Below, one piece after another: positions 3,110-48,066 of a stretch of 64,000 nucleotides of DNA. Each line of letters opens with the position of its first letter. Position 1 is the stretch's first letter. The stretch is from Mobula hypostoma (taxonomy: Eukaryota), in NCBI RefSeq assembly GCF_963921235.1, contig NC_086097.1, forward strand, positions 106,208,001-106,272,000. The letters run 5' to 3'. The notes beneath the pieces are model-generated. The model had not been told where the DNA came from. It made no database searches and saw only the letters and a list, made by a program, of their open reading frames with translations. The position numbers and the translations under genes are program-made.

Positions 3110-3564
3110 TAGTGTGGGGTAGTATAGTGGGTAGTGCTTATTGCTCTCACTTTCAGCTTTCACTGTTGGCTAGCAGTCTTGTGAAAAGGAGAGCTGAAGG
3201 CATAAGTCTCTCCCTACCAGTACATAGCCTCTCCAAAAGCAAGCCTCATGTAATGCTTCTTTGCTGGTGACACATGGAAACTGAACTCCTTTCAAACTCA
3301 GGGTGAACTACAGAGGACAGGGAGGAGGTCTGCCCCCTGCACATGTAGCACGCAGGTCCACCTGGTACTCGTGAACCAGATCCCCAGCTATAGGTAAATA
3401 GCCCCACTGCCTTGTGGGCAGTCTCAGGCGAGATGAAGACCCAGACAGCAAATCAGGATTGGAGCTGGACTACACTGGTGAGGCTGAGAGGGGGATCTTG
3501 ACGACTGGGCATCTCAGGATCTCCATACCTTCCGCCTAATCATCCATTGTCCCTCGAGACAGAC

Positions 3565-4210
3565 GGATGTCAACCACCATATTAGAGTATCTGTCCTGGG
3601 ACCAGCACATTAATGTCATCACAGAGAAGGCAAACAGCACCTCTAGAAGTTTGCATAGATTCGGCATGTCATCTAAAACTTTGTCAAACTTCTATATGTG
3701 CACAGTGGAGAGTATCCTGACTGGATGCATCATGGCCTGGTATGAAAACATCAAAGCCCCTCAAGAATGGAAAAGTCAACAAAAAGTGGTGGATACAGCC
3801 TAGTCTTTCACAGGCAAAACCCTCCCCATCACTGAGCACATTGACAAGGAGCATTGCCATAAGAAATCAACCCCCATCATCCAGGCCATGCTTTCTTTTC
3901 CTTACTACCATCAGGCAGGAGGTATAGGAGCCTTACGTCAAACACCACCAGGTACAGAAACAGTTATTACCCACAGCCATCAAGTTCCTGAGCCAGCAAC
4001 TACACTCACCCTCAATACTTTCAACAACTCTGCAGGTCATATTTCCAGTTTTACTTATTTATTTTTTTTATTATTTCCACAATTTGTCTTCTTTTGTTCG
4101 TCTGTTACGTATAGTTTTTCATAAATTCTATTGTGTTTCTTTATTTCCCTTAAATGGCTGCACAGAAATAAATCCCAAGGCAGTAAATGGACATATACTT
4201 ACTTTGGTAA
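3565..4210 (+). mobile_element. Rex1/Babar-type LINE 3' fragment
   Basis: LSWDQHIN...LHRFGMSSKTLSNFY.CTVESILTGCIMAWY is a Rex1-type RT C-terminal motif; 3' UTR ends in aataaa. Confidence 0.75.
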
Positions 4211-42109: not shown

Positions 42110-43330
42110 TGAATCCTTGACTTCCTGATGAATAGACTACAATCTGATATGATAGGCAGCAATACCCCCACCACAATTATTCTTAACACTGCTGCTCTGC
42201 AAGACTGCATCCTCAGCCCCCTGAACACTCATGACTGCATGGCTAGACTCTGCAGGTTTGCAGATGATCAAGTCAAGTCAAGTCAAGTCACTTTTTATCG
42301 TCATTTTGACCATAACTGCTGGTACAGTACACAGTAAAAATGAGACAATGTTTTTCAGGACCATGGTGCTACACGAAACAATACAAAAGCTACACTGAAC
42401 TACGTAAAAACAACACAAAAACTACACTAGACTACAGACCTACCCAGGACTGCATAAAGTGCACAAAACAGAGCAGGCATTACAATAAATAACAAACAAG
42501 ACAATAGGTACAGTAGAGGGCAGTAGGTTACCACCGTGCTGGGCCAAATCTCAAATAATAATGAGTCAGAGTACAGACAGAGAGCTTCATGAAATGGTAT
42601 CATGACAATATTTCCCTCAGTGTCAGTAAAAGACAAGGAGCAGTGCCCACACTCCTGGTTATATCAACAGTACAAAAGTAGATAGGATTGAAAACTTCAA
42701 GTTCCTAGGAATGAAAATCAACATAATGTCTAGGGTCCTAAGATATAGACACTACAGCTAAGAAAACTCACTGTACCTCTACTTCCTTAGATAGTACAGA
42801 AATTTGGCAGACCCCCTATGGCCTTCACCAATTTTTGTCAATGCACCAATCAAGATGCACTGCAACTGGGTACGCAACTGTGCTGCCCATAACTGCAAGA
42901 AACTACAGAGAGCTGTGAACATAGCTCAGCCTATCGCAGAAACCCCTGTCCCTCAATGGCATCTGTACACACCTTTCAATAAAGCAGCCAACATAATCAA
43001 GGCTCTCACACACCATAGACATTTTCTCTTGCTCTGCCTCCCATTAAGCAGATACAAAAGCATGCAGGCTAAAGGACAGCTTCTATCCCACTATAAGTGA
43101 TCCCCCAGTATGATAAAATGGGCTCTTGATCTCACAATTGGCTTCGTTATGGCTTTGCACTTTATTGTCGCCCTGAACTACACTCTCTGTAACACTTTAT
43201 TCTTCATTATTTTATTGTTTTCTCTTGTACTATCTCAATGTACTGTCAAATAAAATGATCTGTATAGGTGAAATGGAAAACAGATATTCACTGTACCTTG
43301 CTACATATGATAATAATAAACCAATTTATC
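42110..43330 (+). mobile_element. Old Rex1/Babar LINE, interrupted at its FADD motif
   Basis: LNTAALQDCILSPL...HDCMA...FADD, then TTVLGQI after the insert; C-terminal KKLQRAVNIAQ. Confidence 0.78.
42268..42528 (-). mobile_element. LINE 3' UTR fragment with (CTTGA)n tail, nested in Rex1
   Basis: (CAAGT)4 microsatellite followed by an A-rich antisense 3' UTR; host RT motif resumes after it. Confidence 0.65.
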
Positions 43331-43358
43331 AATTTACCAATTTACAATCATTCATAGA

Positions 43359-43915
43359 TGTTAGAGTGAGTTTTTTTGGTAGATAATTCGTTTACACTTA
43401 AATGACTTTGGCCACCAGACTTCTATTTGACAAAGTACTGTGGATTGAGTCCACAACAATGCATTTCCTAAAAGCTGTGGCATCGGGATACCAGCCAGAC
43501 ACTGTGGATGGAAGTGTGAAGTTTACAGGTAGTTTCAAAGACAGTATTATCTATACTTTATAATATTAATTGTCCTTTATGTTAGCACGTAAAATGCCAA
43601 ATAAATGTATTGTGGATTTAACCAAAGGCTGTGGATACCAACCCAGACGTGTTGGCGTCAGAAGGAAAGGATGAAGTCCAAAGGTGTGATGTTTGTATGT
43701 AGCTTCAAAAGGAAGCATTGTCTATGCATTGTCTATAACTTTTTAAGTAGCGATTGCCTTTGTGTTTAGCATATAAACACTGAGCTAGCAGACCCTTCTA
43801 CCGAAAGCGTCTCCGTCCGTAGGATGCCTGCTGTACCTTGTTGTGTCCAATAAAGAAGCTGCTTTGTATTTACCAGTGATTGTATCTCTCCAGTGACTTC
43901 ATCCATGCTACAACA
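43359..43915 (+). promoter_or_regulatory. 5' LTR (557 bp)
   Basis: TG...CA ends; TATAAA at 43772-43777; AATAAA at 43849-43854; 43743-43915 is repeated at 47867-48050. Confidence 0.85.
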
Positions 43916-43917
43916 TT

Positions 43918-43935
43918 TGGTGTCAGAAGTGGGAT
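43918..43935 (+). promoter_or_regulatory. Primer-binding site complementary to the tRNA-Leu 3' end
   Basis: TGGTGTCAGAAGTGGGAT is the reverse complement of ATCCCACTTCTGACACCA; starts 2 nt after the LTR end. Confidence 0.9.
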
Positions 43936-44217
43936 ACTTCGTGATCTGTCATGTGACCAGCGTTCCTAGCAGTCTAAGTTGGTGAGTATTTTTCTAAAAT
44001 AACACTCACACTTGGATCTGTTCGGTCGGTGGTACACAGGAACACGAAGTATCACGAACATGGAGATCTGAACTGGTACATATAAAAGTAGTGTGTGCGT
44101 GTGCATGTGTGTTTATGTACGTGAGGAATCTTTGCATGTTAACCTGGTTAACTTGGTGAGACTTGGACCACCAGTTGCGAAAGGTGGTAACCAACGGTAG
44201 GGTACAAGATGCCAGAG

Positions 44218-47200
44218 TACATAGAACATAGAATAGTACAGCACAGTACAGGCCCTTCAGCCCACAATGTTGTGCCAACCCGCAAACCCTGCCTCCCATA
44301 TAAGCCCCCACCTTAGATTCCTCCATATACCTGTCTAGTAGTCTCTTAAACTTCACTAGTGTATCTGCCTCCACCACTGACTCAGGCAGTGCATTCCACG
44401 CACCAACCACTCCCTGAGTAAAAAACCTTCCTCTAATATCCCCCTTGAACTTCCCACCCTTTACCTTAAAGCCACCTCCTCTTGTATTGAGCAGTGGTGC
44501 CCTGGGGAAGAGGTGCTGGCTATCCACTCGATCTATTCCTCTTATTATCTTGTATGCCTCTATCATGTCTCCTCTCATCCTTCTTCTCTCCAAAGAGTAA
44601 AGCCCGAGCTCCCTTAATCTCTGATCATAATGCATACTTTCTAAACCAGGCAGCATCCCGGTAAATCTCCTCTGTACCCTTTCCAATGCTTCCACATCCT
44701 TCCTATAGTGAGGTGACCAGAACTGGACACAGTACTCCAAGTGTGGCCTAACCAGAGTTTTATAGAGCTGCATCATTACATCGCGACTCTTAAACTCTAT
44801 CCCTCGACTTATGAAAGCTAACACCCCATAAGCTTTCTTAACTACCCTATCCACCTGTGAGGCAACTTTCAGAGATCTGTGGACATGTCCCCCGAGATCC
44901 CTCTGCTCCTCCACACTACCAAGTATCCTGCCATTTACTTTGTACTCTGCCTTGGAGTTTGTCCTTCCAAAGTGTACCACTTCACACTTCTCCAGGTTGA
45001 ACTCCATCTGCTACTTCTCAGCCCACTTCTGCATCCTATCAATATCTCTCTGCAATCTTTGACAATCCTCTACACTATCTACAACACCACCAACCTTTGT
45101 GTCATCTGCAAACTTGCCAACCCACCTTTCTACCCCCACATCCAGGTCGTTAATAAAAATCATGAAAAGTAGAGGTCCCAGAACAGATCCTTGAGGGACA
45201 TCACTAGTCACAATCCTCCAATCTGAATTTACTCCCTCCACCACCACCCTCTGCCTTCTGCAGGCAAGCCAATTCTGAATCCACCTGGCCAAACTTCCCT
45301 GGATCCCATGCCTTCTAACTTTCTAAATAAGCCTACCGTGTGGAACCTTGTCAAATGCCTTACTAAAATCCATATAGATCACATCCACTGCACTATCCTC
45401 ATCTATATGCCTGGTTACTTCCTCAAAGAACTCTATCAGGCTTGTTAGACATGATCTGCCCTTCACAAAGCCATGCTGACTGTCCCTGATCAGACCATGA
45501 TCCTCTAAATGCCTATAGATCCTATCTCTAAGAATCTTTTCCAACAGCTTTCCCACCACAGACGTAAGGCTCACTGGTCTATAATTACCTGGACTATCCC
45601 TACTACCTTTTTTGAACAAGGGAACAACATTCGCCTCCCTCCAGTCCTCCGGTACCATTCCCGTGGATAACGAGGACATAAAGATCCTAGCCAGAGGCTC
45701 AGCAATCTCTTCCCTCGCCTCATGGAGCAGCCTGGGGAATATTCCATCAGACCCCAGGGACTTATCTGTCCTAATGTATTTTAACAACTCCAACACCTCC
45801 TCTCCCTTAATATCAACATGCTCCAGAACATCAACCTCACTCATATTGTCCTCACCATCATCAAGTTCCCTCTCATTGGTGAATACGGAAGAGAAGTATT
45901 CATTGAGGACCTCGCTCACTTCCACAGCCTCCAGGCACATCTTCCCACCTTCATCTCTAATCGGTCCTACCTTCACTCCTGTCATCCTTTTTTTCTTCAC
46001 ATAATTGAAGAATGCCTTGGGGTTTTCCTTTACCCTACTCGCCAAGGCCTTCTCATGCCCCCTTCTTGCTCTTCTCAGCCCCTTCTTAAGCTCCTTTCTT
46101 GCTTCCCTATATTTCTCAATAGACCCATCTGATCCTTGCTTCCTAAACCTCATGTATAGAAACATAGAAACATAGAAAATAGGTGCAGGAGTAGGCCATT
46201 CGGCCCTCTGAGCCTGCACCGCCATTTATTATGATCATGGCTGATCATCCAACTCAGAACCCCGCCCCAGCCTTCCCTCCATACCCCCTGACCCCTGTAG
46301 CCACAAGGGCCATATCTAACTCCCTCTTAAACATAGCCAATGAACTGGCCTCAACAGTTTGCTGTGGCAGAGAATTCCACAGAATTCCACAGCACACATT
46401 GTATGCTGCCTTCTTCCACCTGACTAGATTTTCCACCTCACTTGTCACCCATGGTTCCTTCACCCTTCCAATCTTTATTTTCCTCACAGGGACAAATTTA
46501 TCCCTTACATTCCGCAAGAGATCTCTAAACATCGACCACATGTCCATAGTACCTTTCCCTGCAAAAACATCATCCCAATTCACACCCGCAAGTTCTAGCC
46601 TTATAACCTCATAATTTGCCTTTCCCCAATTAAAAATTTTCCTGTCCTCTTTGACTCTATCCTTTTCCATGATAATTATAAAGGCCAGGGAGCGGTGGTC
46701 ACTGTCCCCCAGATGCTCACCCACTGAGAGATCTGTGACCTGACCCGGTTCATTACCTAGTACTAGATCTAGTATGGCATTCCCCCTGGTCGGCCTGTCC
46801 ACATACTGTGACAGGAATCCAGGATGGACACACTTCACAAACTCTGCCCCATCTGAACCCTTGGAACTAATCAGGTGCCAATCAATATTAGGGAAGATAA
46901 AGTCACCCATGATAACAACCCTGTTATTTTTGCACTTTTCCAAAATCTGTCTCCCAATCTGCTCCTCTGTATCTCTGCTGCTACCAGGGGGCCTATAGAA
47001 TACCCCCAGTAGAGTAACTGCTCCCTTCCTGTCCTGACTTCCACCCATATTGACTCAAAAGAGGATCCTGCTACATTACCCACCCTTTCTGTAGCTGTAA
47101 TAGTATCCTTGTGCAGTAATGCCACCCCTCCTCCCCTTTTTCTGCCCTCTCTATGCCTTTTAAAGCACTGAAATCCAGGAATATTGAGAATCCATTCCTG

Positions 47201-47462
47201 CCCTGGTGCCAGCCAAGTCTCTGTAATGGCCACTACATCATAATTCCATGTATGTATCGAAGCTCTCAGTTCATCACCTTTGTTCCTGATGCTTTTTTGC
47301 ATTGAGGTACACACATTTCAGCCCTTCTACCTTACTGTCTTTACACCGTTTATTCTGCTTCTCTTTCCTCAAAGCCTCTCTGTATGTTAGATCTGGCTTT
47401 ACTCCACACACTTCTTTCACTGCTGTATCACTCTGGGTCCCATCCCCCTCGCAAATTAGTTT
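44218..47462 (-). mobile_element. CR1 LINE with nearly complete ORF2 (APE endonuclease + RT), disrupted, nested in the ERV
   Basis: DVVAITETW, GGGVALL, FYRPP, MGDF, SDH; NYRPVSLTS, DFSKAFDKVPH, FADDTK, LVRPHLEYCVQFWSP; (TTCTATG)n tail. Confidence 0.97.
46158..46399 (-). mobile_element. CR1 3' end of a different subfamily, nested in CR1
   Basis: TSD TGTAT (46153-46157, 46400-46404); (TTTCTATG)n tail; similar to 35840-36050. Confidence 0.88.
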
Positions 47463-47654
47463 ATGGGGCATGTATACTCGTTCGGGGAGCTGCATTTTAG
47501 TGTATGTGTTTGCAAGTGTGATGCAAAGGAATACAACGGGCATCATGAGTTCAGGTGCTCAAAAGTGGCAGATTGCGGTTTTATATTTTGCATAGTGTGG
47601 GAATTAGTGTGGGGATATCTCAGGGAGAGGTTTTACCCAGCTAGATCTACCAGA

Positions 47655-47870
47655 ATGGCACCTATTGAGGTCAGGCAACGTCAGGTTGAGAACCCTGATG
47701 ATACGAGCCTTGATTACGACTATTCATAAGCCCTTCACTCCCAGGGAGAAACAGAGCATCTTGTCTGAGTTGCCCTCACTTAAAGTTGCCTGTGGGAATT
47801 CAGAATTCTGGCGCAAGCTCGAGGAAATGGTTGAAATTCACCAGTTGCACCCTAAAGATATACATGTTAA
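47655..47870 (+). pseudogene. gag: Retroviral gag (capsid N-terminal-like) remnant, one frameshift, truncated by deletion
   Basis: MAPIEVRQRQVENPDDTS / ITTIHKPFTPREKQSILSELPSLKVACGNSEFWRKLEEMVEIHQLHPKDIHV; lies after the PBS; spacing resembles retroviral capsid N-termini. Confidence 0.55.
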
Positions 47871-48050
47871 GTAGTGATTGCCTTTGTGTTTAGCATGTAA
47901 ATATCGAGCCCACACTGAGCTAGCAGACCTTTCTACCAAAAGCATCTCCGTCCGTACGATGCCTGCTGTACCTTGTTGTGTCAAATGAAGAAGCTGCTTT
48001 GTATCTACCAGTGACTCTGTCTCTCCGGTGATTTCATCCACGCTACAACA
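47867..48050 (+). repeat. 3' LTR (3' part only)
   Basis: Aligns to 43743-43915 with about 15 substitutions and one 11-bp indel (counted by eye). Confidence 0.9.
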
Positions 48051-48066
48051 ATAGATTATAAAAGTT

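Follow-up and report, generated by a model that had tools for sequence, protein, structure and literature searches.

An env-less, probably SnRV-like endogenous retrovirus family of the ray Mobula hypostoma with an anatomy resembling that of mouse IAP elements

Lineage I of the elephant shark endogenous retroviruses (CmiERV-I; PMC4422223) is the closest published relative, by a hand tally of reverse transcriptase (RT) residues, of the family described here, which we approached through a decayed endogenous retrovirus (ERV) at 43359..48050 of a 64,000-nucleotide stretch of the Mobula hypostoma genome (contig NC_086097.1, 106,208,001 to 106,272,000; hereafter the window). As described there, CmiERV-I elements are about 9.6 kb long and carry env; when read by eye, their Gag has a long N-terminal coiled coil and a single zinc knuckle, and a stop seems to separate gag from pro. 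They cluster with SnRV, whose group forms clade Huo and takes in class III ERVs (PMC6001957). By eye, they share TGTTAGA..AACA ends of the long terminal repeat (LTR) and a polypurine tract (PPT) ending in GAC before the LTR with the ray family, and a pre-capsid Gag motif with its shark sister, the horn-shark (Heterodontus) protein P0060. The ray family differs from CmiERV-I in having a primer-binding site (PBS) for tRNA-Leu, two knuckles, no gag-pro stop in most same-frame copies, no env and hundreds of copies. The PBS of CmiERV-I is of the Ser type; SnRV, an infectious virus, uses an Arg primer and has env as well as accessory genes.

In anatomy, the family resembles the mouse class II elements IAP and IAP 1Δ1 in its loss of env, its high copy number and a non-autonomous in-frame deletion subtype that outnumbers full copies (PMC4643047, PMC6466679). 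Loss of env together with gain of a signal targeting the endoplasmic reticulum (ER) is described as what made a retrotransposon of infectious IAP virus (PMC4643047, citing Ribet et al.), and the same source calls the sequence of events from virus to retrotransposon poorly understood. IAP belongs to an unrelated betaretroviral lineage of a mammal, and the resemblance would therefore be convergence and not membership. We consider it likely that the window copy is a dead member of an env-less, retrovirus-type family that is likely SnRV-like and was likely multiplied by intracellular retrotransposition.

The family and its class

The LTR-PBS junction matched the genome 256 times and its reversed control not once, which gives at least 256 proviral copies. 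A search with LTR and leader returned 3,497 first-look candidates, of which 40 were scored; the copies fetched comprised 40 chosen by similarity to the window, 14 from a pol search (with 3 of another ERV family), 10 additional pol matches and 40 found by an RT-start motif. An earlier note, made from the letters of the window, had proposed that fuller copies could be recovered, and relatives of about 7 kb with gag, pro and pol were indeed found. Full copies measure about 7.0-7.2 kb and run LTR, leader, gag, pro, pol, about 650 nt, PPT and LTR; none of the copies seen is intact, and those bearing RT have the same LTR, leader and gag as the window family. The Gag nucleocapsid has two CCHC knuckles. 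A frame count over 102 copies (81 without a motif, 7 frameshifted) found both motifs in the same frame in 12, and in 10 of these no stop interrupts the common frame of Gag and protease. As a separate observation, copy L060 holds at 3245-3769 a GDSL/SGNH esterase-like open reading frame (ORF), probably ORF1 of a nested long interspersed element (LINE), and L108, L110, L114, L115 and L116 are more divergent pol relatives, heavily decayed and 37-43% identical to P0009.

The earlier note's tRNA-Leu PBS is exactly complementary to the 3' terminus, with CCA added, of a gene in the host called tRNA-Leu(CAG) by ARAGORN; the tRNA pattern has 19 genome matches, and among five loci scanned three were called tRNA-Leu(cag), while at two no gene was called. 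Two PBS variants in the family, with A or G at position 10, pair with two host tRNA-Leu 3' ends. Other copies again have TATA and poly(A) signals and, counting the six commonest contexts listed, 24 copies have the donor-like GGTGAGT. The target-site duplication (TSD) is 5 bp long, perfect in 12 of 27 two-LTR copies and with at least 4 of 5 bases in 17, and the LTR-LTR distance (Kimura two-parameter, K2P) runs from 0.022 to 0.142 across the family, with a median of 0.072 (n=27). A 5-bp TSD and TGT..ACA termini, both present in the family, are typical of ERV-L and class III elements (PMC8278194).

The natural RT ORF of copy L087 has a YVDD motif and scored 198 bits against foamy RT, 169 against MLV and 96 against Ty3; the integrase scored 105 against PFV and 44 against Ty3, and the best PDB matches were foamy RT and integrase. 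A natural ORF of L083 contains the tether (PF17919/PF17917) followed by RNase_H (PF00075) and integrase, and pol is ordered protease, RT, tether, RNase H, integrase (PR-RT-tether-RNase H-IN). A retroviral YVDD RT with a tether and an RNase H therefore makes the family retroviral, not Gypsy. Pfam matches to RT in L045, L067 and L070 belong to CR1 inserts and were rejected as the element's RT.

It is thus extremely unlikely that we are dealing with an ordinary Ty3/Gypsy retrotransposon with a Leu PBS. Fish Gypsy elements do use this PBS, the family has no env, and in the VIA search described below the capsids of Copia, Arc and PEG10 score level with those of retroviruses; yet it has a tether and a second RNase H, its RT and integrase are far nearer to foamy virus and MLV than to Ty3, Gypsy rows stand apart at 100/100 in the RT tree, and only orthoretroviral capsids align with its capsid from residue 1. 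Gypsy identity was rejected on the RT scores, the tether with RNase H and the tree. The earlier note had held that relatives with a Gypsy RT and no env would mark an ordinary LTR retrotransposon; env is absent, as that required, and the RT is retroviral.

In the RT tree, built on 33 of 68 RT rows with group labels assigned from Pfam domains (an earlier quick tree had 68 rows, 5 of them dropped for short or split matches), Gypsy split off at 100/100, the family fell in a shark-ray clade at 99/97, and the gamma/epsilon rows of class I formed a 100/99 clade without the family, placing it outside class I. The closest database proteins come from sharks (a Mustelus cluster and Heterodontus), then from eel, frogs and coelacanth. 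Over 131 RT columns, the hand tally for L087 gave 72 identities with CmiERV-I, 64 with SnRV, 53 with equine foamy virus and 51 with Loki-Str, the CmiERV-I DNA having been read by eye from the supplement of PMC4422223 and the other three rows taken from that of PMC7947760; RT motifs of the SnRV group (PMC6001957, PMC4977317) are also shared. From these sequence comparisons, the family is most likely an SnRV-like (clade Huo, class III) ERV. It is unlike both ERV-L and XtERV-S in that no dUTPase was seen by Pfam, and its two CCHC boxes do not fit spumaviruses, whose Gag is described as free of Cys-His boxes (PMC8278194). No relative turned up in scans of viral contigs and metagenome contigs.

The eel, frog and coelacanth matches raised a further reading, namely an env-less member of the Loki/Odin group, a predicted vertebrate Odin-like retrotransposon that never had env. 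The dual RNase H arrangement is known from retroviruses, loki and Odin (PMC7947760, PMC9040795), and Odin is described as lacking env (PMC9040795), as the family does; foamy RT and integrase are the best PDB matches, and four chondrichthyan genomes are unmarked for loki in Table S2 of the loki paper. The published RT rows, on which this reading was dropped, point elsewhere: by eye, loki RT has CPFG..NSP.EFNIF where the family has the canonical LPQ.F.NSP.IFH, and in the hand tally Loki stands below CmiERV-I and SnRV. The family is also without the mononegavirus-type fusion env of Loki, and the motif VDWG.L.EEAV.Y is common to the shark-sister Gag and the env-bearing CmiERV-I, so that we regard Loki/Odin membership as very unlikely. 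Two peptides, from P0010 and P0068, had no match in the supplement of the loki paper.

The earlier note had also read mixed class features into the element, that is, a chimera in which gag would be of class I (gamma/epsilon) and both LTR and PBS of class III. A retroviral element, class III-type termini and a capsid N-terminus all stand, while the chimera is unsupported and seems to us quite unlikely. Gag and RT have the same nearest relative, P0060, and both group with shark ERVs (P0060 and the P0009 cluster); CmiERV-I has similar termini, PPT ending and CCHC-type gag; and no Gag_p30 Pfam match was obtained. What recalls class I is the capsid of the shark homolog, whose Atlas look-alikes are Gag_p30 and p24 clusters (0.86-0.88, TM 0.52). 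An orthoretroviral capsid fold is, however, expected outside class I too.

An AlphaFold model of the family capsid, built on seven sequences, has an N-terminal beta-hairpin followed by helices. The Foldseek rows listed were all orthoretroviral capsids (E 0.03-0.24), the VIA search tied Copia, Arc, PEG10, HTLV-1, HML2, PFV and MLV at Z 5.0-5.6, and only orthoretroviral capsids aligned from residue 1 across the predicted hairpin. The window peptide is a capsid N-terminus, and its fold assigns no class: the structure search suggested in the earlier note found it weakly orthoretroviral capsid-like, with Copia and Arc tied.

Gag leader, env and the RT-less copies

The earlier note had started the ORF at MAPIE, but in about half of the copies the gag frame is open for 50-129 codons further upstream. 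Gag has no MG start and no myristoylated matrix; in front of the capsid proline stands an in-frame hydrophobic leader of about 55-60 residues (53-61 codons), which ends in basic residues and reaches a maximum KD19 of 1.0-2.0, against 0.56 for the shark N-terminus. Stops in the gag frame of the leader number 16 in 2,783 codons, compared with 197 and 107 in the other two frames. Length changes are multiples of three in 18 of 27 cases within the leader and in 2 of 22 further 5' (the capsid rows of this table were ignored, the reference copy being frameshifted there), and of 49 copies 42 retain the upstream ATG at -61 and 41 the one at -53. Older subfamilies have the leader as well, 16 of 29 copies being open for at least 50 codons. 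In the horn-shark relative P0060, Gag starts with MG and its first 125 residues are matrix-like (Atlas 0.90-0.91 to Gag_p17/Gag_MA), a likeness for which a structure search of those residues gave no support.

Our analysis leaves it almost evenly balanced, leaning slightly to the negative, whether the leader served to anchor Gag on an internal membrane, for instance that of the ER. A hydrophobic leader of this kind would hold Gag at that membrane, and particles would form within germ cells and not bud from them, as with IAP. ER budding has been demonstrated for IAP, whereas in the ray family only the hydrophobic in-frame leader suggests it. The env signal peptide of SnRV is located upstream of gag and could be the source of such a leader.

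No env was found in any copy examined (about 90); the 650 nt may still hold a very divergent remnant. Of 37 copies in which the gap between integrase and LTR could be measured, 31 have 587-711 nt there, two have less and four more; the extra 1.7 kb of L047 consists of CR1-like pieces, and the 5.3-kb gap of L065 gave no env match. Env queries, taken from another ERV family of the same genome and from two named pol-env proteins, matched on integrase only, the rows of the query "env11" falling there because its slice included integrase. Fifteen short 3' ORFs from six copies had no Pfam match, and the downstream ORFs of the divergent relatives L108, L110, L114, L115 and L116 had no env Pfam match. 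Older subfamilies have the same 3' untranslated region (UTR) directly before the LTR, and env loss therefore predates all sampled subfamilies. Because env-less ERVs are known, the absence of env lowers the case for an infectious virus, not that for an ERV.

The same genome does contain env-bearing ERVs, with 78 matches in a TLV_coat search. Two of these lie in a separate class I-like family (L097 and L098), which with L099 represents a younger class I (epsilon-like) family having open pol frames of 989-1173 aa and a TLV_coat env, at the following places.

G000:C45:46169000-46178999: L097
C12:46958500-46968499: L098
C21:20572500-20582499: L099

Most copies of the ray family lack RT and RNase H through shared deletions. 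Two identical breakpoints, found in 23 of the 40 first-fetched copies, took out the tether, RNase H and all of RT beyond its first motif; the resulting protease-integrase junction has 196 genome matches against 66 for the intact RT start, and only three of 40 fetched RT-start matches keep at least 80% of RT-RNase H. The junction is in frame in 13 of 23 copies by pattern and 15 by eye, with 5 frameshifted and 3 unreadable. In deleted copies, the ratio of nonsynonymous to synonymous polymorphism (pN/pS) of shared variants is 0.19 for capsid and 0.18 for protease, against 0.50 for a non-coding control, low values that may be partly inherited from full-length parents. In the manner of IAP 1Δ1, the deleted copies would have provided Gag and protease themselves, in cis, and taken RT from full copies, which are rarer; IAP 1Δ1 fuses gag to pol, whereas the ray family joins protease to integrase.

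At the deletion junction, about 32 nt (in L031, L036, L050, L067 and others) have no counterpart on either side in the full copy L083, and the frame is kept. An older subfamily (L117-L156), with LTRs about 70-76% identical to that of the window, has at least two further common internal pol deletions; a 670-aa open frame in L120 spans one of them, and RT-less forms arose repeatedly.

An SnRV-like ERV without env would have become an intracellular retrotransposon, in parallel to mouse IAP and IAP 1Δ1. That an SnRV-like chondrichthyan retrovirus independently repeated the whole IAP route, with env lost, matrix turned into an ER-anchoring leader and the family overrun by RT-less in-frame protease-integrase subfamilies, is put forward as a tentative proposal, somewhat less likely than not. 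A number of observations weigh against the reading as an env-less, SnRV-like intracellular retrotransposon or against its parts. The in-frame leader indels amount to about three inherited events, not 18; the stretch from -300 to -186 nt has no in-frame bias (4 of 19); the hydrophobicity of the leader is borderline for a membrane span; and integrase in deleted copies is without clear constraint (pN/pS 0.85 and 0.27). The capsid model is poor (pLDDT 48), support from fold matching is weak (E 0.03; Z 5.0-5.6), and capsids of Copia and Arc score as high as retroviral ones. The RT tree holds no named SnRV, ERV-L, foamy or loki sequence, its class III-like rows are paraphyletic at the base, and the SnRV-like label comes from hand tallies, not from a tree. 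The env survey covered about 90 of the copies and may have missed an ancestor with env in the genome.

Two further points of this kind concern the start of Gag, and they lend some credit to an alternative that we hold possible but would not back: the same SnRV-like env-less ERV would have made Gag from MAP, with no anchor and with cytoplasmic assembly (MusD-like), the upstream frame either encoding an optional isoform similar to glyco-Gag or representing the decayed remains of the old matrix-capsid spacer. The MAP ATG has the best Kozak context (A at -3, G at +4, kept in 41 of 49 copies), so that Gag could start at capsid, and the pN/pS of the leader (0.33-0.78 for -80 to -1, shared variants) is near the control and not clearly below it (0.47-0.50). 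There is also a weak blastp alignment (E 0.008-0.1) between the end of the leader and the spacer that precedes the capsid in shark Gag. Set against this start, conservation is no lower at the -61 and -53 ATGs, the indels that copies share between -61 and MAP leave the reading frame intact, and few stops interrupt that frame in young and old subfamilies alike; the capsid proline would, moreover, need processing after MA|P, which would fit an upstream domain.

The window copy

The window copy consists of the following parts.

43354..43358, no strand: left TSD ATAGA (direct reading)
43359..43915, plus strand: 5' LTR of 557 bp, TGTT..AACA, with TATAAA at 43772 and AATAAA at 43849 (direct reading)
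43918..43935, plus strand: PBS of 18 nt for tRNA-Leu(CAG), behind a TT spacer between LTR and PBS (direct reading and host tRNA match)
43936..44219, plus strand: leader with a predicted splice donor G|GTGAGT at 43981-43987 (direct reading)
44220..47463 (about), minus strand: later CR1-type LINE insertion, foreign to the ERV (Pfam, and breakpoints against uninterrupted copies)
47521..47654, plus strand: remnant of the hydrophobic N-terminal Gag leader, with ATGs at 47521 and 47545, frameshifted
47655..47866, plus strand: capsid domain, first 70 codons or so, frameshifted (tblastn and fold evidence)
47867..48050, plus strand: 3' part of the 3' LTR (184 nt), fused to gag (junction pattern and direct reading)
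48051..48055, no strand: right TSD ATAGA (direct reading)

The earlier note had given the CR1 insert, the remainder of about 1.45 kb, the ATAGA TSD, the 557-bp LTR with its signals, the PBS, the donor-like site and the gag-LTR fusion, and all of these coordinates were reproduced. Without CR1, the element measures 861 + 587 = 1,448 bp. The CR1 insert has Pfam matches to Exo_endo_phos_2 (endonuclease) and RVT_1 (RT) on the minus strand, and no clear TSD was found at 44220-47463; within it, at about 46150-46400, a second CR1-like 3' end with repeated ATAGAAAC units, read from the sequence, breaks the frame. The sequence TTAAGTAG occurs at 43743 in the 5' LTR and again at 47867, where the gag fragment is fused to the 3' LTR piece. 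This gag-LTR junction pattern has a single genome match at up to 2 mismatches, and the fusion is therefore a deletion private to the window copy, which removed the rest of gag, pro, pol, the 3' UTR and the PPT; the 1.45-kb size reflects that deletion and is no family form. The window's own peptides had no Pfam match; against the unbroken gag ORF P0002 the capsid fragment is 89% identical over residues 99-142 (tblastn).

The 3' LTR piece differs from the 5' LTR at 15 of 173 aligned sites, as the earlier note had counted (K2P 0.094), and contains an 11-nt stretch missing from the window 5' LTR. By the two rates of PMC4422223, this distance corresponds to about 20 or about 200 My, a tenfold span for which we claim no date. 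The flank-LTR junction (window 43313-43413) is spanned by contigs under two organism labels, X1 with 0 differences and X5 with 2 differences and 1 gap, so the window insertion likely predates the split of the two labelled organisms. The cartilaginous-fish host inferred in the earlier note is correct: the closest named protein, with 89% identity, carries a Mobula hypostoma annotation. By itself the window copy, dead and with both an internal deletion and a CR1 insertion, is an ordinary fossil.

Bearing on chondrichthyan retroviruses

SnRV-like chondrichthyan ERVs, env-less superspreaders and non-autonomous deletion subtypes are each already known singly. Their combination with the exchange of matrix for leader was not found in the literature (titles and abstract beginnings, with Repbase and Dfam outside the scope of the search), nor was a description of the family, which is apparently undescribed; the supplement of PMC6001957, with its approximately 450 consensus sequences of ERVs, might contain a relative, and the supplements of bioRxiv 2021.11.23.469661 may list the family. 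The interest lies in the family and not in the window copy. Whereas 100-700 ERV insertions were reported for elephant shark, coelacanth and lamprey (PMC4977317), its copy number shows that ERVs can be abundant in chondrichthyans.

Experimental knowledge of the change from infectious to intracellular life comes from a few class II elements of the mouse. A ray family without env and with a leader for matrix, set beside a shark relative that keeps its matrix, offers an independent comparison: it is an env-less, probably SnRV-like ERV whose IAP-like anatomy was probably reached independently. If this is true, a betaretrovirus of rodents and a class III lineage of rays would have taken the IAP route convergently.

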